Shown: positions 612-54,216, counted from the first letter of the stretch. The stretch is 64,000 nucleotides of DNA from Candidatus Iainarchaeum sp. (GCA_043808155.1 JAZDFD010000024.1:3265-67264); one strand, 5' to 3'. Program-made: numbers and translations. Notes: generated from the letters alone by a model not told the origin.

Positions 612-1955
612 TTAAGTGAGAATATGATGAGGACTAAGACTCATATTAATATTGCCAAATTTCCTGTTCCTCTCAGTTATATTCTCAACTGCCCCATTCA
701 AGGCTTTAATCTTTGCGCTGTGCTTAATGTAAGATTTTAATGATTGGAACAATTTTAATAAGTATAATTTTCTATTTATTTGAAGTACCCAATAATCACC
801 ATTATGGACATATCCTTCGTGAGTTACATAACCTTTTTTTGCTGAAATGAAAAGTTTCCTGCATTCTATCCCATGTTTAAAGAGAGTCTTACGAATCTTT
901 CGCAACAATTCTTCGTCATAATTACCTAAAGAATAGATTGCTTTATCATTGAGAATCCCAATATGACCTTCTGCATCTGTAAAACCTGCTAAAAAAGAAA
1001 AGAAATGTTTCTCATTTTCAAAAACCCAGTCGGCTGCAACTTTGTCTAATAAAAAACTAAAAGTTAAAGGAAGATTAACACCAATATTCCTTGCACCGAT
1101 TTTATTTTCTTTTGTTATCCAAACAGGGGCATACTTTTGAAACAATGCTTTAATTAGTTCTAGCTGTTCCTCTTTAGTACTGCCACATTCAACAGATATT
1201 GTTTCACTATTTTTATACATTTTTCTTACTCTTAAATCACCAACTCTGAAGCCAATTAAGTAAGCTTTTTCTATTAAATCTCCGCTAAAATCTTGTCTAA
1301 GATGAACAATATGAGAAGACGCCATAGTTCTTGGTTCTAACCCATACGCTTTAAGTTTTCTATACACTGTACTTCTTGAAAAACCGAATTGTTTTTCTAT
1401 TGCCCACGTGGAAAGTCCCTTATTAACATAAAGTTTGATTAAATCTTGTTTTTTAGGAACGTTTGAATTTAAGGAATGTGACGTTCTAGTCTTTATACCA
1501 AATTGCTTAAGCCTTTTCCAAATGCTAGCTTGGCAACAATTAAATTTCTCAGCAATTTCATATGTTGTTAATTTTTCCTTTTCGTAAAATAATTTTAATT
1601 GTGATTTTGTTATCTTTACGTTTATTTTGCTTGATGATCTAATTTTAATTTTATATTCTCTAAGACGATTCAGAATTGTGCAGATTTCACAATTGTATTT
1701 TTTTGCGATTTTACTTGGGGATTGTTTTTTCTTCACATATAAGTCAAATAACTCTTTTTTTGGAAGTTTTATTTTCTTATCTTTTACAAATAATTTTACT
1801 GCTTCGGAAGTAGTTCTAGATTTAATCCCATACAAATTCATCCAATAGCTAATGGTGTTAGGAGTACAGCCAAGCTTTTTAGCTAACTTTGACATGGGCA
1901 GTTTCTGCCTAACATAACGATCTTCAAGCTCATCTTTAGATATTTCAACTCTCAA
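612..1955 (-). CDS. Free-standing LAGLIDADG-type homing endonuclease-like protein with four N-terminal tandem HTH repeats
   Basis: 447-aa ORF. Four ~50-aa repeats lie at aa ~7-58, 66-113, 117-166 and 168-212, each with the pattern L..LY....LS...IAKK.gCs..TI...Lk..GIK.R. They are followed by two LAGLIDADG motifs (YLIGFRVGDL and FLAGFTDAEGHI). No Hint/splicing blocks flank it. Confidence 0.6.
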   Translation of the reverse strand: MRVEISKDELEDRYVRQKLPMSKLAKKLGCTPNTISYWMNLYGIKSRTTSEAVKLFVKDKKIKLPKKELFDLYVKKKQSPSKIAKKYNCEICTILNRLREYKIKIRSSSKINVKITKSQLKLFYEKEKLTTYEIAEKFNCCQASIWKRLKQFGIKTRTSHSLNSNVPKKQDLIKLYVNKGLSTWAIEKQFGFSRSTVYRKLKAYGLEPRTMASSHIVHLRQDFSGDLIEKAYLIGFRVGDLRVRKMYKNSETISVECGSTKEEQLELIKALFQKYAPVWITKENKIGARNIGVNLPLTFSFLLDKVAADWVFENEKHFFSFLAGFTDAEGHIGILNDKAIYSLGNYDEELLRKIRKTLFKHGIECRKLFISAKKGYVTHEGYVHNGDYWVLQINRKLYLLKLFQSLKSYIKHSAKIKALNGAVENITERNRKFGNINMSLSPHHILT

Positions 1956-2215: not shown

Positions 2216-5200
2216 ATGGAGACAGTAGAAACACAAAAAGATTTTACATCTACAGACGAGAACCCATATGTGAACATGTTTGAAATGTTCTTTGAAACTG
2301 TTTATAAAAAAGAAATTGAAAGATTAGTTGAGAATTATCCTGATAAGAGAAGTTTAGATATTGATTTTAAAAAATTAGAAAAATTTGATTTTGAATTAGC
2401 AGATGATTTAATTGAAAAACCAGATTATGTAATTGATGCAGCAAATGTTGCAATTAGGAAAATTGATGTTCCTGCAATTGAACTGGAAGACTTTGCACCC
2501 CATCTGCGATTTTGTAATTTACCAAAAGACCGAATTCCGTTAATACGTGAAATTTCTGCAAAACACTTAAACAAAATGATTGCAGTTGAAGGAATTATAA
2601 GAGAAATCACAGATGTGTTCCCGAAATTAAAAGTTGCAACATGGCAGTGCAGAAGATGCGGAAACACTTACAAAATTCAGCAGGAAGGAAATCAGATAAC
2701 ACAGCCAAGTTTTTGTGAATGCAAACATAAAGATTTTACTTTAGTTGCAGAAAAATCTGAGTTTGTTGATTTTCAGAGAATTCAAATCCAAGAACCTTTG
2801 GAACAGATAAAAGGTAATGAACAGCCTTCGCAATTACACATTTATGTTTCAGATGATATTGTAAACAGAGTTTTTGCAGGAAATAAAACAAAATTCTCAG
2901 GAATTTTAAGATTGTCAGAACCAAAGAAAGAAAAAAAAGCAGTTTACGGAAGATATTTGGAAACAATTCATCTGGAAGAAACGCAAAAAGATTTTGCAGA
3001 TGTTGACATTACTCCAGAAGAGGAAGCAGAAATAAAATTACTTGCACAGGACCCCAAAGTTTATGATAAATTAATTGCAAGTTTAGCTCCTTCAATTTAC
3101 GGGCATGAAATTGTTAAGGAAGCAATTATTATGCAGTTATTTGGTGGTGTGAAAAAAAACATGCCGGATAAATCAACAATTAGAGGTAACATTCACATTC
3201 TTTTAATTGGTGACCCTGGTGCTGCAAAATGTGTTAGCGGTGATACAGAAATATATTTTAGTGATGGAACTATACAAAAAATGCAGGACTTTGCAGAAAA
3301 TATTTTTTCTAAAACAGAAGCAGTTCTTCTGGATGATGGCTTTTATGCGGATAAAACATTTGACATTCCCATAATGGATGAAAACTGCAGGCTGATAAAA
3401 GGGCAGGGTGCAAGAATATACAAACGCAAACCCAATGCAATGTATGAGATAAGAACAGCTACTGGGAAAACAATGCGTGTTACTAATACTCACCCCTTGT
3501 TTGTATGCAAAGAGGGTAAAGTTAAGGCAGTAAGAACTGAAAACTTAAAATCCGGGGAGTTTATCGCAACACCAAGAAAAGTTGATGTAACTGGGGAAGA
3601 CGTGAAATTGCAGAAAGGAAAAAAAGGAAAAACCAATGCGCTTCACATAACTGCTCCTGAACTTTTGGATGCGAAAGTTGCAAGGTTTTACGGATATATG
3701 CTTGCAGAAGGATATGCCCTAAAAAGAAAGAAAGCAACAACTCACATCAGATTTACAAATAATGATGATGATATTATTGAGGATTTTATAAAATGTGCAA
3801 ACATATTTTCAATTAAGCCTAAGGAAATAAACAAAGAAGGTGCCAGGGAAATTGCCCATGACAGCAGAGAACTTGGAAATTTCTTTGAGGAAAATTTTCC
3901 GGAATTGATGATGAAATCTTCAAAAAAAATCATTTCACAAAAAATCCTTCGCTCGAAAAAAGAAATTGTGAAAGAATTCCTAAAAGCATTCATTGAGGGT
4001 GAGGGGCACATTAGCAAAAGAGACAGGACTATTGAAATTACATCTGCAAGCGAAAATATTGCAGACAGACTGCAGGCACTACTGCTACGCTTTGGAATTG
4101 TTTCTTCAAAAAAAGAAATAATGTCATGTGCTACAAACAGCAAAATGCCAAAATTAAGAAAATATTTCAAAATAACAATAGATGGTGAATTTACCTGTAA
4201 ATATATTCGTGAAATTGATTTTATTTCTGAAAGAAAACAAAATCTTGCTAAAAAAGTGATGACTTTAGAAAAGACATTCAACACAAACATTGATGTTGTT
4301 CCGAATATGTCTGAAGAACTTAAATTTATTAGAAAAACACTCGGATTAAGACAGAGGGATATAGGATTAATGCGTTCAACATACCAGCATTATGAGAGAG
4401 GCGACAGAAATCCGGGCAGAGACAAACTGCAGGTAATTGCTGTTGAACTTCTGAAACATTATGTGGATTCAACTATTATTGATAACAAAGTTGAAGATAA
4501 AATACTAAACTTAGTTAAATTAGCAAACGCAGATATTTTTTGGGATAAAATAACGGGTATGAAAAAAATTGAAACTGACGAATGGGTGTATGATTTCGAA
4601 GTAATTGGTACGCACAATTTTATTACAAATCTTGTATTTTCACACAACTCAATGATGCTACTCGCAACAAATAAGATTGCACCCAAATCAATTTACGTTG
4701 CAGGTAAAACAACAACTGGTGCAGGAATTGCAGCAAGTGCAGTAAAAGATGAATTTGGTGAAGGCGGATGGACACTCAAAGCAGGTGCATTGGTTTTGGC
4801 CTCAGGAGGCCTGGCTGCAATTGATGAATTTGATAAAATGGATGCTGACGACAGAAGTGCATTGCATGAGGCGCTGGAACAGCAATCATACCATAAAGAT
4901 TTTGAAATAATGCTTGCTAACGGTGAAACAAAAAAAATAGGTAAACTTGTGGATGATTTAATTGAAAATAATCCTGAAAAATTAGTATTTGGTAAAGACT
5001 GCGAAATTCTGCCTGTAGACGATTTGCAGCTAATTACAACAGATTTTGAAAAAGTTTATCATATAAATGCAGACAGAGTCAGCAGACATAAAGCACCATC
5101 TCATTTTATTGAAATTGAATATTCCAATAGTGGAAAAATAAAAGTTACACCAGAGCATCCAATATTTGTTTTTAATAAAGAAAATTGCTTTGAAGAAGTT

Positions 5201-6334
5201 CTTGCAGAAAAAATAAATGAAAGGATGTTTTGCCCAGCTATAAGAAATAATCATGAAGCAGAGGAGAAAATAGAAGTAATAACTGAGATAAAAAATGATA
5301 ATGGTTTAGAAAAAGAACTTGAAAAATTGGAGAGGTTTATTAGTCCAGAACTTAAATTAGTTTGGGTTAAAAAAGTTGAACGCATTCCTAACACAGATTC
5401 AGAATGGGTTTATGATGTTACAGTTGAACCAACTAAAACCTTTATTTCAGGGGGATTAGTACTCCATAACACAGTTAGTGTTGCAAAAGCAGGAATTATT
5501 GCAAGGTTTAAAACTGAAACATCTGTTTTAGCAGCAGCAAATCCTAAATTTTCAAGGTTTGATCCTTACACTCCTTTCATGGAACAGATTAATTTACCTC
5601 CAACATTGGTTTCAAGGTTTGATTTGTTTTTTATGATTAGAGATGTTTTGGATAAAACAAGAGATAAGGAAATTGCAGACCATATTTTAAGATCTCACAG
5701 ATTGGGTGAAATGCTTTACAGAAGTCAGAAAACAGAAACAACCGATCTTCAGGTTTTAAAAGAAATAGAAGACATAGCAACACCACCGATAGACCCTGAA
5801 CTTTTCAGTAAATATATTTCATATGCAAGGCAACATGTGTTTCCTGTTTTGAGTGACGATGCAATAAAAGCAATCACAGAATTTTATGTTAATTTGAGAG
5901 ATATGGGACGAAAAGAAGGGAGCTATTCTGCAACACACAGACAGCTTGAAGGACTTGTAAGAATGGCAGAAGCATCTGCAAGAGTAAGGCTTAGTTATAC
6001 TGTTGATATGGAAGATGCAGAAAGAGCCATAAGATTATTGAGAACTGCATTACAGGAACTTGTTACTGACCCGGAAACAGGAAAGATTGATTTTGATATT
6101 ATTGCAACGGGACAGAGTCATTCAAAAGTTGCAAGTATGAAAAAGATTCTCGGAATTATAAAAGAAAAAGCCATGGAAATGGATATGGTGCCGGTATCAG
6201 ATGTTTTGGAAGAAGCAAAAACTCAGGGAATTGATAAAGATAAAGCCATGGATTTATTGAGTCAGTTGCAGAAAGAAGGGGAAATCTATAGGCCCAGAAA
6301 CAATTTCGTAAGACCTGTGCAGAGAAATAAGTGA
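2216..6334 (+). CDS. mcm: MCM replicative helicase, interrupted by two inteins (about 704 aa after splicing)
   Basis: 1372-aa ORF. Zinc motif CRRCGN..CEC; Walker A GDPGAAK|S split by an insertion; Walker B AAIDEFDKM; HEALEQQ|TVSVAKAGI split by a second insertion; arginine finger SRFDL; C-terminal winged-helix-like tail. Confidence 0.93.
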   Translation: METVETQKDFTSTDENPYVNMFEMFFETVYKKEIERLVENYPDKRSLDIDFKKLEKFDFELADDLIEKPDYVIDAANVAIRKIDVPAIELEDFAPHLRFCNLPKDRIPLIREISAKHLNKMIAVEGIIREITDVFPKLKVATWQCRRCGNTYKIQQEGNQITQPSFCECKHKDFTLVAEKSEFVDFQRIQIQEPLEQIKGNEQPSQLHIYVSDDIVNRVFAGNKTKFSGILRLSEPKKEKKAVYGRYLETIHLEETQKDFADVDITPEEEAEIKLLAQDPKVYDKLIASLAPSIYGHEIVKEAIIMQLFGGVKKNMPDKSTIRGNIHILLIGDPGAAKCVSGDTEIYFSDGTIQKMQDFAENIFSKTEAVLLDDGFYADKTFDIPIMDENCRLIKGQGARIYKRKPNAMYEIRTATGKTMRVTNTHPLFVCKEGKVKAVRTENLKSGEFIATPRKVDVTGEDVKLQKGKKGKTNALHITAPELLDAKVARFYGYMLAEGYALKRKKATTHIRFTNNDDDIIEDFIKCANIFSIKPKEINKEGAREIAHDSRELGNFFEENFPELMMKSSKKIISQKILRSKKEIVKEFLKAFIEGEGHISKRDRTIEITSASENIADRLQALLLRFGIVSSKKEIMSCATNSKMPKLRKYFKITIDGEFTCKYIREIDFISERKQNLAKKVMTLEKTFNTNIDVVPNMSEELKFIRKTLGLRQRDIGLMRSTYQHYERGDRNPGRDKLQVIAVELLKHYVDSTIIDNKVEDKILNLVKLANADIFWDKITGMKKIETDEWVYDFEVIGTHNFITNLVFSHNSMMLLATNKIAPKSIYVAGKTTTGAGIAASAVKDEFGEGGWTLKAGALVLASGGLAAIDEFDKMDADDRSALHEALEQQSYHKDFEIMLANGETKKIGKLVDDLIENNPEKLVFGKDCEILPVDDLQLITTDFEKVYHINADRVSRHKAPSHFIEIEYSNSGKIKVTPEHPIFVFNKENCFEEVLAEKINERMFCPAIRNNHEAEEKIEVITEIKNDNGLEKELEKLERFISPELKLVWVKKVERIPNTDSEWVYDVTVEPTKTFISGGLVLHNTVSVAKAGIIARFKTETSVLAAANPKFSRFDPYTPFMEQINLPPTLVSRFDLFFMIRDVLDKTRDKEIADHILRSHRLGEMLYRSQKTETTDLQVLKEIEDIATPPIDPELFSKYISYARQHVFPVLSDDAIKAITEFYVNLRDMGRKEGSYSATHRQLEGLVRMAEASARVRLSYTVDMEDAERAIRLLRTALQELVTDPETGKIDFDIIATGQSHSKVASMKKILGIIKEKAMEMDMVPVSDVLEEAKTQGIDKDKAMDLLSQLQKEGEIYRPRNNFVRPVQRNK
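3230..4648 (+). mobile_element. MCM intein 1 (473 aa, LAGLIDADG-containing) inserted in the Walker A P-loop
   Basis: Starts CVSGDTEIYF right after GDPGAAK. Block B VTNTHPLFV; LAGLIDADG motifs FYGYMLAEGYA and FLKAFIEGEGHI; ends EWVYDFEVIGTHNFITNLVFSHN followed by +1 Ser, which restores GDPGAAKS. Boundaries were set codon by codon in frame with 2216. Confidence 0.85.
4886..5470 (+). mobile_element. MCM intein 2 (195-aa mini-intein with no endonuclease domain)
   Basis: Inserted between HEALEQQ and TVSVAKAGI. Starts with Ser (SYHKDFEIML); block B VTPEHPIFV; ends EWVYDVTVEPTKTFISGGLVLHN with +1 Thr. Confidence 0.8.
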
Positions 6335-12788: not shown

Positions 12789-15410
12789 ATGGCAAAAGGA
12801 AAAACTGAGAAAAAAGCAAAAATCAAAAAATCAAGCAAGCTGGATGCATCACCAAAAGAAATCGCAGCAAGATTAGAAGCTTCAGCAAAAGAAATGGTTG
12901 AATCTATTAAGAAAAAACAGGATCCTGAATTTATAACAAAACAGAGGGGCAAAAGCAATGTGAATTTTGATGAGGATTCAGGTCTTATTGAATTAGGTGC
13001 AAAAGAAACAACAAGGAATTTTTTGAATATTGGTCATGCTAAAAAGTTTATGCAGACAACATTAGTTGCTGAGAAAACACATGATTATTTGAAACAGAAT
13101 AAAACTGCGTCAATTCGTGAAATCTATTATGAATTAAAACACACAATAAAAGACACACATGAAAACACATTTGAAGACCAGACAGAAAGTGATTCAGTAA
13201 TTGTTGATTTAGAGCATTCAGTTGACACAATCAGAGAAAAACTAAATCTTCATGCAAATCCAAAAGGAACTCTTTATGGTGACATTACATTAGTTGATGT
13301 TGTTCATAATAAAGACACTTTTAATGCTTCAAAGCTTGGAAGAGGCGGCTGGAGTATTATGAGCCGAATGGAACCAGAAGAAATTAAAATCAAAAAAATA
13401 GATGCAAATTATATCCTTGTTATTGAAACAGCTGCAATGTATGAAAGACTTGTAGAAGAAGGTTTCCCTAAAAAGCACAGGGCAATTTTAGTTGGTACGG
13501 GTGGTCAGGCAGCGCGTGGTACAAGAAGATTGATTCATAGATTGCATGCAGAATCAAAACTTCCTGTTTATGTTTTCAGTGTTGATGGTGAAGAAACAGT
13601 TGTGATTGAAGAAAATGGCTTTATTAGAAATGTTCAATTGAAAGAGCTTATGGAAGGAAAAGATTTGCTGAAAGTTGATGGCATTATAGAAAATGAAAGA
13701 AGTTCACTTAACGCAAGATCGATGTGCTTTAATGATAAAAAAGTTTCTTTTGGGCAAGTAAATCAGGTTATCAGACACCCCATTGTAGAAGATTTGTATG
13801 AAGTAAAAACAGATGTGGGATATAACGTGAAGTTGACAAGATCTCACAGTTTAATTGTTTATGATTCTAAAAAACACGAATTTGTTGAGAAAACTCCTTT
13901 GGAAGTTGATAAGGAAACTGATTTTGCAATTGTGAGCCTTGATGTTCCAAACAATGAAAGTGTAAGAGAAATTGATTTAGCAGAATTTGCTTTAAAACAC
14001 AGAAATGCAAAAATTGAAGAAGATGAAATTGTGAATGTAAAAAATAAAAGAAGTCTTCCAAGATTTATTAAAAAAGAACAACTGAATGATTTTTGCAGAT
14101 TGTTGGGATATTATGCTGCAGAAGGACATACAGGAGATTATGATGTTTGCCTAAGTTTTAATATTACAGAACGTGAATATATTGAAGATGTTAAAGAAAT
14201 TGGAAACAGTTTGTTTGGAATTGATGTAAAAGAGCATAACCCACACAAAACACTTTCACAGATTAAGTTTAATAGCACAATTCTTGCATCACTATTCACA
14301 GAAATTGCTTCAACTGGCAGCAATAACAAAAGAGTACCTGATATTGTATTCAATGTTCCGACATCTGCAAAAAAAGAATTTTTGAAAGGTTATTTTAGAG
14401 GAGATGGTAGGGTTGATTTTAATGAAAAAAAATCTTCAGTTGAATTATGGGCAAAAACTGTGAGTAAAAAGCTTGCTTATGATTTAGTTTTGCTTATTTC
14501 GCAAATTGGCGCAAATGCAACAATTCAATATCCAAAAATTTCAGAAGACGAGCATGAAGTTGAAATAGAAACAGTTTCAGGAGTATATAAAACAAAAATC
14601 ATCGCAAAACAAACGCCATATTTAGTAAGTGTTTCAAATAAAGCAGCTTTGCAGGTGTTAAAAGAAATTGTTGCAGAACTAAGACCCGAAGCAATAGCAC
14701 ATATTGAAAACAATCATATAAAAACTCCAAAACTTGATTCACTGCCAAGAGAATTTGTTGAACATTTTAGAGAAAATTTAAGAAATGAATTTAGAGGAGA
14801 ACTTGAAAAACGATTACCGCCTGCAACGTTCCAATGGCCAAGAATTTCAAAAGAAAAATTAAGAAAACTGCTTGCAGAAAGAGAACTTAGTGAAGAACTT
14901 GAATTACTGAGAAATATTGCAGAAAGTAAAACAACATTTGCAAGAATTAAAGACATTGAAAAAGTTGAAGCAACAGATAAATATGTTTACGATATTGAAA
15001 TGGCTAATACGCACAGATTCTTTTCAAATTTTATTTGTGTGCACAATACAGATGGGGACCCTTACGGATGGTACATATATTCTGTAATTAAGCAAGGTTC
15101 AATGGCGTTAGCAGCACACTCAGGTATGTTATCAGTTCCAGATGCAAAATATATTGGGATGACATTAGATGATGTTAAAACATATGGCTTAGAAAATGTA
15201 ACTGAAAAAATGAAAGAAGGCGACATCAAAAGAGCAAAAGAAATGATGGACTATCCATGGTTCCAGACAAAAGAATGGCAGGCGCAGTTAAAGAAATCCA
15301 TAAGTGAAAAAATCAGAATTGAACAACAGGCACTTGCAAACAAATCATTAGATTTTGTTGCAAGGGAATATCTCCCTCAAAAAATCAAAAAGAAAGATTT
15401 CTTGCCATAA
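12789..15410 (+). CDS. top6A: DNA topoisomerase VI subunit A (Spo11-like), interrupted by one intein (about 383 aa after splicing)
   Basis: SIREIYYELKH (catalytic Tyr region), VIETAAMYERL, GTGGQAARGTRR, LPVYVF|...|TDGDPYGWYIY Toprim motif split by the insertion. Confidence 0.9.
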   Translation: MAKGKTEKKAKIKKSSKLDASPKEIAARLEASAKEMVESIKKKQDPEFITKQRGKSNVNFDEDSGLIELGAKETTRNFLNIGHAKKFMQTTLVAEKTHDYLKQNKTASIREIYYELKHTIKDTHENTFEDQTESDSVIVDLEHSVDTIREKLNLHANPKGTLYGDITLVDVVHNKDTFNASKLGRGGWSIMSRMEPEEIKIKKIDANYILVIETAAMYERLVEEGFPKKHRAILVGTGGQAARGTRRLIHRLHAESKLPVYVFSVDGEETVVIEENGFIRNVQLKELMEGKDLLKVDGIIENERSSLNARSMCFNDKKVSFGQVNQVIRHPIVEDLYEVKTDVGYNVKLTRSHSLIVYDSKKHEFVEKTPLEVDKETDFAIVSLDVPNNESVREIDLAEFALKHRNAKIEEDEIVNVKNKRSLPRFIKKEQLNDFCRLLGYYAAEGHTGDYDVCLSFNITEREYIEDVKEIGNSLFGIDVKEHNPHKTLSQIKFNSTILASLFTEIASTGSNNKRVPDIVFNVPTSAKKEFLKGYFRGDGRVDFNEKKSSVELWAKTVSKKLAYDLVLLISQIGANATIQYPKISEDEHEVEIETVSGVYKTKIIAKQTPYLVSVSNKAALQVLKEIVAELRPEAIAHIENNHIKTPKLDSLPREFVEHFRENLRNEFRGELEKRLPPATFQWPRISKEKLRKLLAERELSEELELLRNIAESKTTFARIKDIEKVEATDKYVYDIEMANTHRFFSNFICVHNTDGDPYGWYIYSVIKQGSMALAAHSGMLSVPDAKYIGMTLDDVKTYGLENVTEKMKEGDIKRAKEMMDYPWFQTKEWQAQLKKSISEKIRIEQQALANKSLDFVAREYLPQKIKKKDFLP
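13578..15047 (+). mobile_element. Topo VI A intein (490 aa, LAGLIDADG-containing) inserted immediately before the Toprim DGD motif
   Basis: Starts with Ser (SVDGEETVVIEENG); block B LTRSHSLIVY; LAGLIDADG motifs LLGYYAAEGHT and FLKGYFRGDGRV; ends KYVYDIEMANTHRFFSNFICVHN with +1 Thr. Boundaries were checked in frame with 12789. Confidence 0.85.
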
Positions 15411-48468: not shown

Positions 48469-49695
48469 ATGGCTGAGCAAAAACGCGTACTGGTAATGTG
48501 CATTGACAGGGACGATGACCTGGGCAGAAAAACAACTATTCAGGGACCTGTTATAGGCAGAGAAAAGAATCTTAATGCAGCCACTGCTTTGGCTTTGCAA
48601 GACCCTACAGAGGCAGATGCAAACACAATGTTTGCAACTGTTAAGAAATATGATGAATTAAAGAAAATTTATACGGATATTGAAATTGCTACAATTACTG
48701 GACACGGGAAAATAGGGTTTCAGGCAGATAAAAAAATAAATGAACAGCTTGATTTTGTGTTTGAACAGTTTCCTGCAGATTCAATTGTTTTGATTACTGA
48801 CGGCATGGAAGATGACCAAGTAATCCCAATTCTTCAGGGGCGTGCAAAAATAATTTCAAAAGAAAATGTAATTATAAAACAGGCACAGGCTGTTGAATCA
48901 ACTTATTACACTATTAAAGAAGTACTTAAAGACCCTGATATTGCAAGAATTGTTTTTGGAATTCCGGGTTTGGTTCTTTTACTTTATGTTGCACTTGGAA
49001 GTTTCTCATTGCAGATAATTTCATTTATTTTGGGTGCGTATCTATTGCTTAAAGGATTTGGAATTGAAGAAAGAATTCTCAGAGCCTTTAAATACATTAC
49101 ACAAACAGTTTCAATTCACAGAATTTCATTCCCATTTTATATTGGAGGCGTAATTATTCTGAGTTTTGGTGTGATTACATCATACAATACTTACATATCA
49201 AACACAGCAACTGATTTGATTCTTCAGATTGCAAGTTCATTGCAACCGATATATGCATTTGCAACATTGAGTGTATTAACAATGATTTTGGGACGATGTA
49301 TTGATGTGATTAATATAAAGAAGGCTTACAGATTGAGAAAATATTTTATGATGTCTATTTCTGCGTTAATGATTTGGTTAATTTTTGATTCTGCAACATT
49401 AGTTGTTCTTAGGCAGGCAGATTTGAATTGGTTTTTATTTACGATTGCAATTTCATTTGCAGTTCTTTTGGTGTCATACAGAGTTTCAGCAATTATTGAT
49501 GTGAGAAAGAAAATAACAAAATTGCTTATTGGTTTGCCGGTTTACAATGAAGAAGGAATCTGGGTTGGCAAAGTTTCTGAAATAAATAAAAAAACTGATT
49601 CAGTTACATATCAAGATATCAGAGATAAAACAGAAAAAAGTGCAAAAAGAAAACAGTTTTTACTCCGCGACGGAAGAATTCTTATACAGCGATAG
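48469..49695 (+). CDS. DUF373-family membrane protein
   Basis: [43 protein letters not shown] soluble N-domain, then about 7 TM helices. Confidence 0.6.
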
Positions 49696-51112
49696 TTTTC
49701 TTAGCTACTTTTTTTAGAATTTTTGGTTTTTCGATTTTTTTAACTGTACTTATTATATTTGTAAGGCTTTTTATCATCGCATTTTTTCTGCTGTGTTTTA
49801 CAAATGCATTATTCAGAACATCAGTTAGTGTTTTTACGGGAATTATTTTTATTTTCTTCAGTTCAGATGCAGACAAAATAATATCTTCAATATTTGATGC
49901 AGGCACAATTAATTCCTCAAAACCTGCTGCAATTGCGGCTAGTGTTTTTGCAGTTACTCCGCCTACAGGCAAAACATCACCCCTAACACTTAATGAACCT
50001 GTCATTGCAAGGTTTTGTTTTATTGGGATTCCTTCCATTGCAGAAATTACTGCAGTTGCAACTGAAACAGATGCTGAATCGCCCTCAACACCCTCATAAG
50101 ATTGTAAGAACTGAATATGAATATCATGTTTTGAAACATCTTTTCCTGAAATCTTTTTTATGATTGCAGAAACATTCTGAACTGCTTCTCTTGCGATTTC
50201 CCCTAATTTGCCTGTTGCAATTAATTTTCCTTCAGATTTTGATGCCGCAGGTGCAACCTCTGCCTCAATTGGCATTACAATACCAGCGGAGCCGTCCACA
50301 AAAACTGCTAAACCATTTACCCGTCCAACAACACTTCCGATGCTTTTGTAGACTTCGTAATCTTTTTTTTGCTGAATCATTTCATCAACCATCTGCTGTT
50401 CTAAAGTTCTTGCAGACATTTTTGCCTGATAGAGATCTTCAACATCAACAAACTCATGGCCTTTTTCTTTTGCAATGTCTCCTGCTGCTCTTACAAGTCC
50501 TCCGATGTCACGAAGTTTCAGAGTTAATCTGTTCTTTCGTCCTGCTCTTTTCTTTGCTTCGAAAATTATCTGTTCGACTGCTTCTCTTGTGAAGTGCGGG
50601 ATTTTTCCATCTTTTTTAACTTCCTGTGCAACTAACTGAACTAAATTGTCTCTGTTTTCTTTTGTGTCAGGCATATCAACATTCATGTAAATTTCATAAC
50701 CATAACCGCGTATTCTTGAACGTAAAGCAGGGTGAACTTTTTTCAAATCATCATAGTTCCCTGCTGCAACCAAAACAAAATCACATGGGACTGCTTCTGT
50801 TCTTGTCATTGCACCACTTGACATTTCTGATTGCCCTGTAATGGCATATTTCTTTTCCTGCATTGCAGTAAGAAGTTCCTGCTGTGACTTCGGGCTTAAA
50901 GTTGCAATCTCATCAACGAAAAGAACACCTCCTGAAGCTCTGTGAATCATTCCGGGCTCAACTCTTAAGTGTGGTGGTGTTCCAAGACCGCCTGAGTTAT
51001 GCACTAAAATGTCTTCTACAAAAAGGTTTCCAGTTTCTGTTGTGACATTATACACGTGTCCTTTAAAATCACGTTCAGATTTAGATTCAAATTTAGATTT
51101 ACTTGCTTTCAT
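49682..51112 (-). CDS. lonB: LonB protease C-terminal fragment (Walker B to protease domain) preceded by a 39-aa C-intein
   Basis: The ORF begins [39 protein letters not shown], then [30 protein letters not shown] (Walker B)...; protease Ser in EGDSASVS. Confidence 0.85.
50996..51112 (-). mobile_element. Split-intein C-half (IntC, 39 aa) of the LonB intein
   Basis: Blocks F/G read [20 protein letters not shown] with +1 Ser. The pattern matches the C-termini of the three contiguous inteins in this window. It sits at the very N-terminus of its ORF. Confidence 0.75.
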
Positions 51113-51137
51113 GATATATAAATACAGGAGTGAAAGG

Positions 51138-51145
51138 AATAAAAA
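51138..51145 (-). promoter_or_regulatory. Candidate TATA box for a (near-)leaderless IntC-lonB transcript
   Basis: The minus strand reads TTTTTATT at about -33 to -26 relative to the ATG at 51112. No Shine-Dalgarno is visible. Confidence 0.25.
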
Positions 51146-51190
51146 GGTTGTTTTCAGCTTTTGTTAAGTTTTGATTTTTTTAGTGTCGAA

Positions 51191-51292
51191 TCATTCTGCA
51201 ATTACTAAATTTAAGGAAAACATAATGAATCTTACAAATAAGTAAAGGTATGCAGTCAGACCAGTTAAAGCCATTGCAAGACCGATTTTCAT
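51191..51292 (-). CDS. Possible 33-aa hydrophobic micro-ORF (not in the track)
   Basis: My translation is MKIGLAMALTGLTAYLYLFVRFIMFSLNLVIAE. The ATG lies 8 nt after the stop of the upstream 230-aa ORF. Single TM-like segment. No further support. Confidence 0.2.
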   Translation of the reverse strand: MKIGLAMALTGLTAYLYLFVRFIMFSLNLVIAE

Positions 51293-51300
51293 TTTTAAAC

Positions 51301-51993
51301 TCATAAATGTTTCTCCAATGATTCAAGACATTTGTCTATTGAAATTTTTTTGAATTCTTTTAAATAAGATGTTAATGTAGATTTTTGTTCTAATATTGTT
51401 TTCATAAAAATCTCATCTAAATTGCCGGGGATAAAGTTAATAATTTTGAAAGTATCTATACCTGGCTCTCTTAAATAAATCGCTGCCATGGATTTGTATA
51501 ATAAAATATCAGTATGATTGAAACCTAAATCAACTAAGAGACATGTATCATTAGAACGGAAAATATTGCCGGCACTTTCAAAAGCAAAAAACCAGTCTGC
51601 TTCACCCTGAAAGTAATCATCAATAAGCAGATATAAAGCAAATTTTTGGGCAATGTTATTTGCATCAACATTATAGAACTCATAAATACTTTTATCCGAC
51701 CAGTTTTTATCATTAGACCAAACATCATCGACTATTAAATGAGTTTCAAATCCTGCAAGAAATGCTTTAGAGTATTTATCTGCATTAGAGATTTCGAATA
51801 TGGACTGTTTTCCTTCAACCTCATGGGTTATATTTCTATCAGTAGAATTTATGTATCTAATATCGGGTGCGATGGCTCCAAAAAAATAGTCGTCGATGTT
51901 ATCATAATTTGAAATTATTGATTTCTTTTTAAGTCTACTTAAAATTAATTTTGCCATCCATTCATGAGTAAATAGGAAAGCCATATACAACAT
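51301..51993 (-). CDS. Hypothetical protein, possibly a zinc-dependent phospholipase C-like hydrolase
   Basis: 230 aa. His/Asp pattern FTHEW..., GAIAPDIRY, ETHLIVDDVW is reminiscent of the Zn_dep_PLPC family. Located between the two halves of the LonB split intein. Confidence 0.3.
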   Translation of the reverse strand: MLYMAFLFTHEWMAKLILSRLKKKSIISNYDNIDDYFFGAIAPDIRYINSTDRNITHEVEGKQSIFEISNADKYSKAFLAGFETHLIVDDVWSNDKNWSDKSIYEFYNVDANNIAQKFALYLLIDDYFQGEADWFFAFESAGNIFRSNDTCLLVDLGFNHTDILLYKSMAAIYLREPGIDTFKIINFIPGNLDEIFMKTILEQKSTLTSYLKEFKKISIDKCLESLEKHL

Positions 51994-52040
51994 CAGTTTG
52001 TATAATTTATATTGTTTCTGGTACAGGATTCACTAATAAT

Positions 52041-53213
52041 TTATGTCAAGTGGATAGTTTTGCTTTGTTCTGTTTCTACTTTTAGCAGTTCTTTTCCAAG
52101 TTTTTGCTTTTTTCTTTTGTATTTTATTGCGATTTCAATTTGTTCATATGTGCGCCTTTTCTTGTCTTTTGCATAAATCAAGGGGAAAACACTATCAAAG
52201 AATAAAACTTTGTGAAAATGTGTTCGAAAGAAAATTCTGAAACAATGGCTAAAATTACCATCTTTTCTCAGTGTTTTCTTGCTGAAATCTTTTCTAATAT
52301 TTGGAGTTGTGTCAACACCAACAGATTTGCACAATCTTTTAAGGCTTTTAAGAAAGGTGATATGCTTGCCCTCAAGTTTTTCAATCTTGCTTAAACCTAA
52401 TGTTAAATTTGTGAAACGATAATTTCCGCGATTGTCAGATCTCCAAGAAGGAACAGAAAATTCCGAAGAAATTAAGCCATCAAGAAATGCTATTCTTATT
52501 TTTTTGCTTAAGGAAAGAATATTTTTTGGAGGCATATAGGGGGTTGAAACTTTGTCACCAACTGGCACTCCCAAAGCAACAAACAATCTTATGGCAGCTC
52601 TGTCAAAAGTTCTAATATTATAAGAGTGACCATATTCGCCACCCTCCACTATGTTAATTTTATTTTTAACAAAAGGAAATATCTCGATAAGATTTTCTTT
52701 GAAAATTTCAATATCTTCGATTTTAGAAGAAATAAAAGCCAGTGTATTTAATCTTATATCAATTCCGCCATCCCCAAACAACATACCCATAATTCTAAAT
52801 ATTTCTTTTATGTGCTTGTGTTTTGTAGTAAGAGGCAGAAAGCCTGCTTCTTTTAGTTTGTCAACAGTTTTCAAAGGAATTGGTTTTCCTCTTTTATTAG
52901 TTCTAGTGTGCCACCATCTTATTCTTCCTTGTGGAACTCCTAATATTTTTGCACATCTTTTGTAACCAAAACTTGGATTTTCTTTAACCAATTGCAGATA
53001 TTGCTTGTATTTTTTGCAGGATTCAATATCATAATCGGAATATGTGTTAATGATGTCTTGCTCTGTTACCAACTCTCTAGCTGTCATATAAAAATTACGA
53101 TTTTTGCATTTATAAGTGCTTTGAGAGCACATTTCCGGTAAACTCCAGTCAAGACTTATTCCAAGTTTCTTCGAAGAATAAGACTCATCTAAAATTAGCA
53201 ATTGCAGAAGCAA
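52041..53213 (-). CDS. Free-standing LAGLIDADG homing endonuclease-like gene with an N-terminal HTH
   Basis: LAGLIDADG motifs IMGMLFGDGGI and IAFLDGLISSEF; HTH-like YKRCAKILGVPQGRIRWW. The ORF start is ambiguous (Met at 53213, 53132 or 53087). The first 29 nt overlap the end of the IntN ORF in another frame. Confidence 0.65.
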   Translation of the reverse strand: MLLQLLILDESYSSKKLGISLDWSLPEMCSQSTYKCKNRNFYMTARELVTEQDIINTYSDYDIESCKKYKQYLQLVKENPSFGYKRCAKILGVPQGRIRWWHTRTNKRGKPIPLKTVDKLKEAGFLPLTTKHKHIKEIFRIMGMLFGDGGIDIRLNTLAFISSKIEDIEIFKENLIEIFPFVKNKINIVEGGEYGHSYNIRTFDRAAIRLFVALGVPVGDKVSTPYMPPKNILSLSKKIRIAFLDGLISSEFSVPSWRSDNRGNYRFTNLTLGLSKIEKLEGKHITFLKSLKRLCKSVGVDTTPNIRKDFSKKTLRKDGNFSHCFRIFFRTHFHKVLFFDSVFPLIYAKDKKRRTYEQIEIAIKYKRKKQKLGKELLKVETEQSKTIHLT

Positions 53214-54216
53214 TTACTTTAATCTCTTCAAGAAGAATTAGATTATCTCTTTCAGAAATATTTTCTGCTTCTTTGCTTTCTTTTGAAGTGAAGACTTTGT
53301 GTTCTGGAGTTAGAGAAACTGTTTTTTCTCCGACTTTAATATCAACTAGCTTACCTTCAAATGGTTGTCTATTTAAAGAAAGAATTCTTGAAACAACTGG
53401 CTTTCCTTCTTTGTAACCTATAGTATAAAGCTCTTCTCCTGGGGGGAGCATTACTGCTTCGTAGTTCTTCTCGTTTCTTTCAATTAAATGTTTATATTTG
53501 GAATTGATGTGAGACCATAATTCAATAAATGTAATCTCCTCAAATTGAGCTCCTTTTCGCAAATAAAGCTTGGAAAAGCCGTAATTACACTGAAGCGGGT
53601 CATGTCTAACGTCCCCAAGCAATGAACCTGCTCTTGCACCAGTTCCTTCAAAAAAGGGAGCAATTTTTTTCTTATCATTATCAATCAAAAGTTTTGGTGA
53701 TTCGTTTCCCACTTTTGTTCTTAACTGAGACCCCAGCATTGTTCCGACAACTAAAAATCCGCCCAAAATAATCATTGCTGCAAATACAACATCCGGCACC
53801 CACCCCATTTGCCATACAACACTTGCTAAAATAAACCAGCCAATTGGAAGAATCAAACTAAACAATCTCATATTGTCTTCTTCTTTTTTTGATTCAAGTC
53901 TTTCTTTCTGCAGAATTTTCTGCCCTTCACCTGCTTTTACAACTTTTACTTTTGGGTTGTTTGGGTCTGCAGCATTCGGATACATTAAAACATCGTGTAA
54001 TTTCTGAACTGGGAGAATTTCAGCCATTCCCTGTGCTAACATTGATTTTCCAGTTCCCGGAATACCCACAAGCAGAACATTTCTTTTTTGAGCTGCTGCT
54101 TTTTTTATTAATTCAACACTTTTTTCCTGACCCAAAACCTGATTTATGGTTTTTTCAGGAACATGAATTTCAGCAGTAGTTTTGTAATTTGCAGGGATTT
54201 GTGACATATAATACAT
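53185..54216 (-). CDS. lonB: LonB protease N-terminal fragment (Walker A plus membrane anchor) fused to a 134-aa N-intein
   Basis: VLLVGIPGTGKSMLA (Walker A), two TM helices (LILPIGWFILASVVW / VVFAAMIILGGFLVVGTMLG), GTGARAGSLLGDVRHDPLQ, then CNYGF... and a stop. Confidence 0.85.
   Translation of the reverse strand: MYYMSQIPANYKTTAEIHVPEKTINQVLGQEKSVELIKKAAAQKRNVLLVGIPGTGKSMLAQGMAEILPVQKLHDVLMYPNAADPNNPKVKVVKAGEGQKILQKERLESKKEEDNMRLFSLILPIGWFILASVVWQMGWVPDVVFAAMIILGGFLVVGTMLGSQLRTKVGNESPKLLIDNDKKKIAPFFEGTGARAGSLLGDVRHDPLQCNYGFSKLYLRKGAQFEEITFIELWSHINSKYKHLIERNEKNYEAVMLPPGEELYTIGYKEGKPVVSRILSLNRQPFEGKLVDIKVGEKTVSLTPEHKVFTSKESKEAENISERDNLILLEEIKVIASAIANFR
53188..53589 (-). mobile_element. Split-intein N-half (IntN, 134 aa) of the LonB intein
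   Basis: Cys1 is codon 210 (TGT at 53589-53587, checked). Block B SLTPEHKVFT. The ORF terminates with no C-terminal splicing blocks. Confidence 0.75.

Follow-up and report, generated by a model that had tools for sequence, protein, structure and literature searches.

Naturally split inteins are exemplified by cyanobacterial DnaE and Nanoarchaeum equitans PolB, whose halves are encoded far apart, and to our knowledge no endonuclease gene lies between the halves of either. Fractured genes were described by Dassa et al. 2009 (NAR 37:2560, PMC2677866) at 26 loci, bacterial or phage-like, in marine metagenome reads; these loci encode enzymes of DNA synthesis and repair, and their GIY-YIG or Vsr-like endonucleases are thought to have invaded an intein (PMC2677866). 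The nrdA gene of phage Aeh1 is likewise split by a mobile endonuclease gene, its product being made from two polypeptides, which reportedly assemble non-covalently, without an intein and without formation of a peptide bond (PMC3045599). Ten inteins have been counted in LonB proteins (PMC4760082), and no paper describing a split LonB intein was found in the literature.

The window analysed here comprises 64,000 nucleotides from Candidatus Iainarchaeum sp., for which the initial annotation had reported a lonB gene fractured at an intein, a free-standing LAGLIDADG gene separating the two intein halves. Every test run bore this out, and translation of the window confirmed all ORF positions, all on the minus strand (Table 1). 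Three contiguous inteins elsewhere in the window were also confirmed; MCM contains two of them and Top6A the third. Judged from sequence, lonB of this DPANN archaeon (Iainarchaeota/Diapherotrites-like) is very probably a fractured gene whose product would be remade by protein trans-splicing. As in the loci of Dassa et al., a conserved enzyme gene is divided into two ORFs that have stayed at their locus in the original order and orientation, and the break is bordered by the halves of a split intein; the flanking tRNase Z-like and DUF373 genes are syntenic with those of relatives. It differs from those loci in its host gene, which encodes an archaeal membrane protease, in its LAGLIDADG endonuclease and in its passenger genes. 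With DnaE and PolB it shares a split at the site of endonuclease insertion, a long N-intein (IntN, ~100-130 aa), a short and basic C-intein (IntC, ~36-40 aa) and an essential host protein broken inside its catalytic module, whereas the lonB halves lie 2.1 kb apart (up to 4.9 kb in relatives) with an endonuclease gene between them.

Table 1. Features of the fractured lonB locus (positions counted from the first nucleotide of the window)
Feature	Position	Strand	Evidence
lonB N-extein, 209 aa	53590..54216	(-)	ORF, translation, Pfam Mg_chelatase/AAA N-terminal matches
IntN (N-intein), 134 aa, with TGA stop at 53185..53187	53185..53589	(-)	ORF, Cys1, TPEH block B
Promoter-like element ahead of the endonuclease gene: TACCGGAAA ... 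CAAAG ... TTATAAA	53109..53140	(-)	Conserved motif
Double-motif LAGLIDADG homing endonuclease gene (predicted), 348 aa, N-terminal helix-turn-helix region	52041..53087	(-)	Conserved start, motifs, predicted fold
PLC-like all-helical protein gene, 227 aa, passenger	51301..51984	(-)	PF00882, homologues
Hydrophobic (membrane) peptide gene, 37 aa, passenger	51191..51304	(-)	Conservation in relatives
TATA-like motif CCTTTTTATT, upstream of C-half start	51138..51147	(-)	Position shared with relatives
IntC (C-intein), 39 aa, N-terminal part basic, with blocks F/G	50996..51112	(-)	Translation, conservation
lonB C-extein, 437 aa, with stop	49682..50995	(-)	Pfam Lon_C, LonB_AAA-LID

The N-half ORF (53185..54216, 343 aa) carries Walker A (GIPGTGKS) and two hydrophobic helices, which in the translation form a membrane hairpin within the extein, between Walker A and Walker B, and it runs from ...GDVRHDPLQ straight into CNYGF.... 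The C-half ORF (49682..51112, 476 aa) opens with a 39-aa leader and continues with SGGLGTPPH..., Walker B (VLFVDEI), the LonB AAA-LID (Pfam E 2.7e-9) and the Lon_C protease domain (E 7.9e-32), whose Ser-Lys dyad, the Ser of GDSAS and the Lys of GGVTAK, can be read from the translation. Together, Pfam matches and translation give the architecture of an archaeal LonB: an AAA+ module, a membrane hairpin, the LonB LID and Lon_C. Against uninterrupted LonB genes, the N-extein is 59-70% identical to the N-terminal part, the alignment stopping exactly at residue 209, and the C-extein is 70-78% identical to the C-terminal part from its residue 1. The alignment with intein-free orthologs proposed in the initial annotation places the junction DPLQ/SGGLGT (slash, splice site) exactly in 32 uninterrupted lonB alleles of related genomes. 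The LonB inteins of Euryarchaeota (Pab, Pho and Pfu Lon) interrupt the same host protein with a bifunctional intein of LAGLIDADG type in the ATPase module; they are, however, contiguous and cis-splicing, and the likeness does not imply that they occupy the same DPxQ/SGG position. A scan for the pattern HN/SGGLGTP gave hits in DPANN and in a few MAGs labelled Methanosarcinales, and none in Thermococcales.

IntN begins with Cys and has block B in SLTPEHKV. Among 120 homologues of the N half, position 1 is always Cys (58) or Ser (62), TxxH is present in 117 with the other three truncated, and a stop follows 24-40 residues past TxxH in all. The terminal Asn of IntC is found in 25 of 25 C-halves, preceded by His in 20 of them, and the +1 residue is Ser in all (VHN/S in the window); IntC identity across loci is 64-89%. 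The Intein_splicing (Pfam) match of the window is weak (E 0.004, below the gathering score), and HINT support from the single sequence is statistically modest. When IntN and IntC were fused and searched against the PDB, NrdJ-1 (E 8e-4), KlbA (E 1.7e-3) and VMA were among the best matches, and inteins accounted for the four best hits and for five out of six in the list (E from 8e-4 to 0.7). The nucleophile, block B, the C-terminal Asn with Ser+1 and the HINT homology point to a class 1 split intein, which would be expected to splice in trans. Median dN/dS was 0.31 for IntN and 0.17 for IntC, and 0.18 and 0.09 for the exteins, with dS near saturation in most pairs; the cleanest pair (L029/L030) gave 0.14 and 0.10. 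By these ratios the intein halves are under purifying selection.

The same residues bear on the possibility that the LonB halves assemble non-covalently and that the intein halves, instead of splicing, do no more than dock the two chains with high affinity. In favour of this, 5 of the 25 C-halves have lost the penultimate His and end in SN, CN or KN; many active inteins, though, do without this His. The residues that serve only the chemistry, Cys/Ser1, TxxH, the terminal Asn and Ser+1, are nevertheless conserved throughout. Phage Aeh1 NrdA is a reported precedent for rebuilding an enzyme from its fragments with no splicing step (PMC3045599), but it has no intein, and we regard non-covalent assembly as improbable here.

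That the halves are separate polypeptides is indicated by the stops, by the intervening genes and by a separate conserved start and promoter motif for the C-half. Relatives use TAA, TGA and TAG to end the N-half, their spacers are between 66 and 1345 nt long, the reading-frame offset relative to the endonuclease start is random (8/8/5), and some of them carry unrelated genes between the lonB halves, in part on the opposite strand. The TATA-like motif CCTTTTTATT precedes the start codon of the C-half by ~25-35 nt and coincides in position with gcaaCCTATTTAATaatttt, a sequence strongly conserved ahead of IntC in most of the fractured loci; this conservation suggests that the motif acts as a promoter. 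The endonuclease gene has a TATA box at 53109..53115, ~25 nt upstream of its ATG, and the upstream element conserved in 15 aligned loci (TTCACCGGAAA-N8-10-CCAAAG-N-GATTATAAA) may be an archaeal BRE/TATA promoter.

Joining of the pieces on the ribosome by translational recoding or bypassing is a formal alternative named by Dassa et al. (PMC2677866). The gap that would have to be crossed, 2.1 kb here and up to 4.9 kb in relatives, nevertheless contains genes that are conserved in their own right and that in some relatives lie in part on the opposite strand, and regularity of frame and stop codon is absent; the random frame offset and the varied stops and spacers therefore exclude recoding for practical purposes. 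An assembly or sequencing error in a gene that truly holds one contiguous endonuclease-containing intein might be suspected from the IntN and endonuclease ORFs, which are 97 nt apart in different frames, and from the contiguous inteins known at the lonB site (L040, L041, L047 and L050). The PLC-like and peptide genes, however, separate the endonuclease from IntC, and therefore no single frameshift restores contiguity; equivalent stops moreover occur in >100 independent assemblies with varying stop codons, spacers and frames, and such an error is hardly credible.

The LAGLIDADG ORF had been placed at 52041..53213. It does encode a predicted endonuclease, but its true start is the ATG at 53087, which 21 relatives share, and with this start the gene stays clear of the N-half ORF. 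The protein contains the motifs LFGDGGID and AFLDGLxxSE (AFLDGLISSE in the window); of their two catalytic acidic residues, D106 is invariant, and E209 is invariant among 24 locus sequences and nearly so among 40 homologues from databases. In Pfam the window protein has no match at E<=1, and LAGLIDADG_3 matches 9 of the 24 relatives (best E 7.7e-5). Its AF2 model (pLDDT 94.4) has the pseudo-dimeric alpha-beta-beta-alpha-beta-beta-alpha fold, and each of the 50 best Foldseek hits is a LAGLIDADG enzyme, with I-Tsp061I first (E 2e-8), the best structural matches being I-Tsp061I, PI-SceI, the TliVMA intein and I-DmoI. Motifs and predicted fold place the middle gene among the double-motif LAGLIDADG homing endonucleases; its 103 homologues are nearly all free-standing and 320-390 aa long. 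IntN, endonuclease and IntC are colinear with the contiguous inteins of L040 and L041 at the same site, the alignment having 158 identical columns and its breakpoints falling on domain borders, in agreement with the suggested descent from a full-length endonuclease-containing intein. Since its homology to the endonuclease domain of these contiguous inteins spans the whole protein, the endonuclease would have arisen by fission, and not by the invasion proposed for the endonucleases of Dassa et al.

We hypothesize that two separately transcribed genes yield a membrane-anchored LonB-N-IntN (343 aa) and a soluble IntC-LonB-C (476 aa), whose IntN (134 aa) and IntC (39 aa) would pair into one HINT domain. 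Canonical class-1 protein trans-splicing would then begin with an N-S acyl shift at Cys1, after which Ser+1 would attack and the terminal Asn would cyclise, joining ...HDPLQ to SGGLGTP... in a 646-aa LonB with Walker A and Walker B on one chain. The endonuclease gene would descend from an intein that was once contiguous at the lonB site and contributed its endonuclease domain, and the gene product presumably cleaves uninterrupted lonB alleles, so that repair could copy in the whole cassette. To this cassette a two-gene passenger module, encoding a PLC-like protein and a small membrane peptide, would have been added.

The proposed survey of empty, split and contiguous alleles covered 80 loci from GTDB species representatives and found 32 uninterrupted, 26 fractured, 18 N-half-only and 4 contiguous loci, the N half of the N-half-only loci ending as in the fractured ones. 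More than 120 distinct N-fragments of matching length (320-390 aa, 50-64% identity) are present in Iainarchaeota/Diapherotrites MAGs, and an independent scan for the HN/SGGLGTP pattern gave 50 further split C-halves. The view of the locus as a snapshot of an intein breaking up does not hold, because the arrangement occurs in at least 44 of the 80 species-level loci and in the 50 further C-halves; the comparison of these sequences argues that the fractured lonB is a widespread arrangement of long standing, kept by selection.

Stop codons and foreign ORFs inside a gene are the usual signature of a pseudogene, and loss of LonB might be tolerable in reduced genomes. That lonB is decaying, a remnant of an intein-containing gene disrupted by insertions, is nonetheless very unlikely: both halves are full-length with every motif intact, the promoter motif and start codon of the C-half are conserved, and dozens of species share the break, their exteins and intein halves alike showing dN/dS well below 1.

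Close relatives of the fractured lonB loci differ by the clean presence or absence of the whole cassette. The fractured L004 and the empty L080 have flanks 80-87% identical and differ at the junction by a clean indel of 2.5 kb; MAG JBDRLP01 carries fractured and contiguous lonB alleles on different contigs, and empty, fractured and contiguous alleles are interspersed in the extein tree. In Micrarchaeota the lonB halves can be unlinked, lying on different contigs in one MAG (L053/L158), and the LonB split-intein family therefore spans linked and dispersed states.

What had been described as an unrelated ORF of 230 aa is present, but it encodes a PLC-like protein (PF00882, E 4e-7) whose homologues begin at codon 4, giving 227 aa, downstream of an earlier in-frame ATG at 51993. 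The 64 homologues (~227 aa) all fall within the same archaeal lineage, and the AF2 model (pLDDT 86.9) had no significant match in the PDB. The possible micro-ORF proved to be a genuine conserved gene for a hydrophobic peptide, and its start overlaps the stop of the PLC-like gene (ATGA). The idea of acquired cargo is supported, as the two genes sit elsewhere in the genome in other relatives: the PLC-like gene is inside the lonB gap in L012, L015, L017 (two copies), L021, L032, L036, L081 and L083, and elsewhere in L082, L174 and L175. At L014, where a PLC-like gene was looked for and none detected, the peptide gene stands right behind the endonuclease gene. It lies directly 3' of the PLC-like gene in L081, L082, L021 and L083, a variant form occurs in L012, L017 and L036, and in L174 it is annotated at 42 aa.

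The lonB locus of the window consists of five successive genes on the minus strand (49682..54216, by ORF reading), with an endonuclease gene and two cargo genes placed between two halves of the protease, each of which is joined to one part of an intein. Residues 1-209 of the N-half form the N-terminal part of an archaeal LonB, with the Walker A motif GIPGTGKS, two hydrophobic helices and the end GDVRHDPLQ, while residues 210-343 (IntN) begin with Cys, include the intein block B motif SLTPEH and run into a TGA stop 33 residues further on. Beyond IntC, the C-half continues with SGGLGTPPH, Walker B, the LonB AAA-LID domain and the Lon_C protease domain (Pfam). The neighbours of lonB are a tRNase Z-like metallo-beta-lactamase gene and a DUF373 membrane protein gene, and lonB of relatives has these two genes beside it as well; the remainder of the window is ordinary archaeal chromosome, and no second lonB was found elsewhere within the 64 kb.

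Positions of the split lonB locus, its upstream motifs and other intein-related genes in the window
Feature	Position	Strand	Description
LonB N-half	53185..54216	-	343 aa; ends at TGA
Shared motif upstream of endonuclease gene	53109..53140
TTCACCGGAAA box	53132..53140	-	candidate operator
Endonuclease gene	52041..53087	-	348 aa; two LAGLIDADG motifs
Two-gene cargo module	51191..51984	-	specific to this archaeal lineage
PLC-like gene (ORF3)	51301..51984	-	227 aa; weak but above-threshold match to Pfam Zn_dep_PLPC
Small peptide gene	51191..51304	-	37 aa, hydrophobic; its ATG overlaps the PLC-like stop
LonB C-half	49682..51112	-	476 aa; IntC is the first 39 aa
MCM gene	2216..6334	+	two contiguous inteins, at least one bearing a LAGLIDADG domain
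Top6A (Topoisomerase VI subunit A) gene	12789..15410	+	one contiguous intein
Free-standing ORF	612..1955	-	447 aa; several helix-turn-helix domains and a LAGLIDADG_3 domain

A search of 5.8 billion proteins returned homologues of the N-half in more than 120 distinct clusters from Diapherotrites/Iainarchaeum metagenome-assembled genomes (MAGs), all of the same length (320-390 aa), with 50-64% identity and 92-97% query coverage, and all homologous N-halves terminate 24-40 residues past TxxH. The exact N-half of the window has no entry in the contig index searched. Among 80 loci from species-representative genomes, 32 carry an empty, uninterrupted lonB reading DPLQ/SGGLGT (the slash marks the junction), 26 are fractured like the window (an IntN of 122-138 aa ends at a stop and lies 1.6-4.9 kb ahead of IntC and the C-extein), 18 show the same N-half and stop on a contig or locus that ends ahead of any C-half, and four bear unbroken inteins at the identical site. 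Because the empty alleles are continuous exactly there, the intein junction is fixed to the residue. Assembly error, frameshift artefact and recoding are ruled out by the relatives, which use all three types of stop codon at the end of the N-half, have spacers of 66 to 1345 nt between that stop and the endonuclease start, and show a random frame offset between the two genes (8/8/5). The 802-aa N-protein of the related locus L081, which as an IntN-endonuclease fusion would cast doubt on the window stop, was rejected as such; the protein holds a further contiguous intein, located in the P-loop, and L081 too is split at the DPLQ site. Both the break in lonB and its junction at DPLQ/SGGLGTP, as proposed in the initial annotation, are borne out by these same-length N-halves, fractured loci and intein-free alleles.

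When IntN and IntC of the window were fused, the best matches among all PDB sequences were inteins, i.e., NrdJ-1 (E 8e-4), which is among the 'fractured gene' split inteins, MJ0781 KlbA (1.7e-3) and three VMA inteins, with TPEH pairing with TPDH and ILVHN/S with the C-terminal block. Concatenation of IntN, endonuclease and IntC gave a colinear full-length alignment with the contiguous inteins of loci L040 and L041 (~495 aa, 158 identical columns), in which both breakpoints lie at the borders of the endonuclease module. Position 1 is Cys in 58 and Ser in 62 of 120 N-halves, TxxH is kept in all but three truncated ones (117/120), and the C-halves have a terminal Asn (25/25), mostly as His-Asn (20/25), and always Ser at +1. 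The median dN/dS (Nei-Gojobori) is 0.31 for IntN and 0.17 for IntC, with 0.18 and 0.09 for the adjoining exteins, and the least saturated pair, L029/L030 (dS ~0.57), gives 0.14 and 0.10 for the two intein halves. The PDB matches, the conserved splicing residues and the low dN/dS support the claim that the sequences at the break are intein halves. HMMER, run exhaustively over 1.8 billion representatives, found IntN in 31 clusters only; in matched proteins with a full N-terminus, some of them split and some contiguous, it occupies about residues 235-390 of LonB-like proteins, and this confinement to one position therefore marks a site-specific intein family. The names of the clusters with contiguous IntN-bearing proteins were uninformative.

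IntN is of a Cys1 type (C[HN]YGFNxLY, 58 of the 120 N-halves) or a Ser1 type (SxIDExKFVV, 62 of 120), a division that also takes in L012, L017, L036, and L037; the types do not track the extein tree, and dN between L012 and L037 is 0.14 in the N-extein, 0.06 in IntC and 0.62 in IntN; this sequence comparison suggests mosaic inteins made by recombination. The contiguous inteins closest to the fractured family (L040:10613-12100 and L041:6092-7573) start with Thr (DPLQ/TFFPDT), an unusual intein nucleophile, and end in AN or SN, not HN.

Residue conservation and the established class-1 intein chemistry point to association and trans-splicing of the halves. The N-half would be held in the membrane through the LonB hairpin with IntN facing the cytoplasm, the C-half would be soluble, and the basic N-terminal part of IntC, whose net charge ranges from +2 to +8 among family members, would combine with IntN into a HINT fold. 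Cys1, which is the sole cysteine of the intein in the window member, Ser+1 and the terminal Asn would then yield a 646-aa LonB. Walker A and Walker B reside on different halves, so neither half alone should hydrolyse ATP.

Upstream of the endonuclease gene, 15 loci share TTCACCGGAAA-N8-10-CCAAAG-N-GATTATAAA, with a TATA box ~25-30 nt from the ATG that occupies 53109..53115 in the window, and the IntC start is preceded at about -37 to -24 by gcaaCCTATTTAATaatttt in most fractured loci and by its counterpart CCTTTTTATT at the same place in the window, 51138..51147. By motif and position, the elements ahead of the endonuclease and the C-half look like archaeal BRE/TATA promoters of leaderless or short-leader mRNAs. 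Several relatives hold unrelated genes in the gap between the halves, part of them on the opposite strand. In Micrarchaeota, many split C-halves have neither an N-half nor an endonuclease gene in the 3-5.5 kb upstream of them, no C-half occurs within 10 kb of the N-half, and MAG PFPF01 carries the N-half (L053, PFPF01000034.1) and the C-half (L158, PFPF01000006.1) on different contigs; the LonB halves in this group appear unlinked (further loci L088, L099, L112, L133-L136, L139, and L142). With promoter-like motifs, foreign genes in the gap and halves on separate contigs, the halves are thus independent genes. The TTCACCGGAAA box is situated ~20 nt upstream of the endonuclease TATA box, is conserved in the aligned loci, and could be an operator for the helix-turn-helix domain of the endonuclease itself.

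The ORF between the halves had been described as a LAGLIDADG ORF of 52041..53213; motifs and fold uphold its class, and the start is moved from the TTG at 53213 to the ATG at 53087, which stands directly ahead of a conserved xLVxEQDIINTYS in 21 relatives. The family alignment contains LFGDGGID and AFLDGLxxSE, with Asp invariant and Glu invariant or nearly so, and an N-terminal helix-turn-helix-like region GYKRCAKxLG..GRxRWWH. Of 24 family members, 9 have a Pfam LAGLIDADG_3 match; the window protein has no Pfam match at E<=1, and sequence searches against the PDB, single and profile, gave chance matches only, so a fold search was needed. The best 50 structural matches in the PDB to the AlphaFold2 model (40 homologues, pLDDT 94.4) are all LAGLIDADG enzymes, including I-Tsp061I (E 2e-8), PI-SceI, the TliVMA intein endonuclease domain and I-DmoI. 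Almost all of the 103 homologues in the database are free-standing (320-390 aa), and the endonuclease domains of the L040/L041 inteins align with the window protein end to end at ~30% identity. The latter therefore seems to be a domain of the intein itself that has become free-standing, whereas the GIY-YIG or Vsr-like endonucleases of the original fractured genes are thought to be invaders of an intein (PMC2677866). Most fractured loci keep the gene whole; it is broken into fragments in L001, L029, and L034, survives as a remnant in L009, and is absent from L008, L017, L033, L037, L081, and L083; such decay with intact splicing halves is expected once the element is fixed.

A DNA pattern scan for HN/SGGLGTP over species-representative genomes detected 73 LonB loci with an intein at the site (split IntC 50, contiguous 22) in MAGs labelled Iainarchaeota, Micrarchaeota, Woesearchaeota, Nanoarchaeota and, in a few cases, Methanosarcinales. 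All three kinds of allele named in the initial annotation, contiguous, split and empty, occur at the site in relatives, and they are thoroughly interspersed in the N-extein tree. The fractured L004 and the empty L080 are 80-87% identical in both flanks, and a clean indel of 2.5 kb between them falls precisely on the junction; the pairs L033/L073, L021/L066, and L047/L061 differ in the same manner. Between close relatives, the cassette is therefore acquired or lost as a whole, which is the pattern expected of homing, or of recombination with an empty allele that reverses it. The colinearity with the L040/L041 inteins supports the proposal that a full-length intein broke up to give this locus, but the locus is no snapshot of that process, as the fractured state is old, widespread and maintained rather than transitional.

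At least three intein insertion sites are present in lonB of this lineage: the P-loop (GTGK/C...HN/S, contiguous, in L081), DPLQ/S, and a third at about residue 71-80 of the C-extein, with a contiguous intein bearing a distantly related LAGLIDADG domain. L081 (3540-9939) has inteins at all three; the other loci of this observation are L007, L009, L012, L023, and L008. The fractured allele L016 and the contiguous-intein allele L047 occur on different contigs of MAG JBDRLP01, which could reflect mixed strains within the bin or a second copy of the gene.

The 64 homologues of the PLC-like protein are all ~227 aa long and all belong to this archaeal lineage. The gene lies inside the lonB gap in the window, L012, L015, L017 (two copies), L021, L032, L036, L081, and L083, and probably also in L093, L097, and L120; it lies outside the gap in L082, L174, and L175, adjoining a PLD-like gene and gatCAB in the last two. 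In both contexts it is followed, with stop/start overlap, by a gene for a membrane peptide of 37-42 aa, and the two therefore form a two-gene module. The PLC-like protein gave a good AlphaFold2 model, predicted to be all-helical, which has no significant structural neighbour in the PDB. With passenger genes inside it, the cassette might allow inteins to mediate the transfer of cargo. We tentatively propose, as a possible reading that we hold at somewhat below even chances, a cargo-carrying composite mobile element together with a path in one host protein from contiguous to fractured intein, endonuclease loss and unlinked halves. If so, genes between the intein halves would be copied into an empty lonB at each endonuclease cut, and the split intein would serve to carry cargo horizontally, in this case the PLC-like protein together with the small membrane peptide.

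Fractured genes and split inteins are already known. In the searchable literature, we found no description of a split intein in LonB, no work on inteins of Diapherotrites/Iainarchaeota and nothing relevant on DPANN split inteins, nor any fractured gene that carries passenger genes or a LAGLIDADG endonuclease; the contiguous LonB inteins on record there are all from Euryarchaeota. With these loci, split inteins gain a natural family of large size and diversity, in a host protein and a domain of life for which the literature searched describes none. About half of the family combines Ser1 with Ser+1; any of these that lack cysteine would be of use, as cysteine-free split inteins are wanted for protein ligation tools. 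At one site in one lineage there are empty alleles, contiguous inteins with their endonuclease, fractured alleles whose endonuclease is intact, others in which it has decayed or is missing, and unlinked halves; with all stages side by side, the long-discussed idea that split inteins arose by fission of bifunctional inteins can be tested directly through comparison. Genome-reduced DPANN archaea appear to rely on post-translational ligation for a key quality-control protease. The split lonB and endonuclease genes are publicly annotated as 'ATP-binding protein' and 'hypothetical protein', so that LonB in these genomes may be wrongly taken as truncated or missing. Together with lonB, MCM and Top6A bring the number of inteins in the 64 kb to four, and the free-standing ORF at 612..1955 is a further stand-alone LAGLIDADG-type gene of the same genome, in a position unrelated to any intein.
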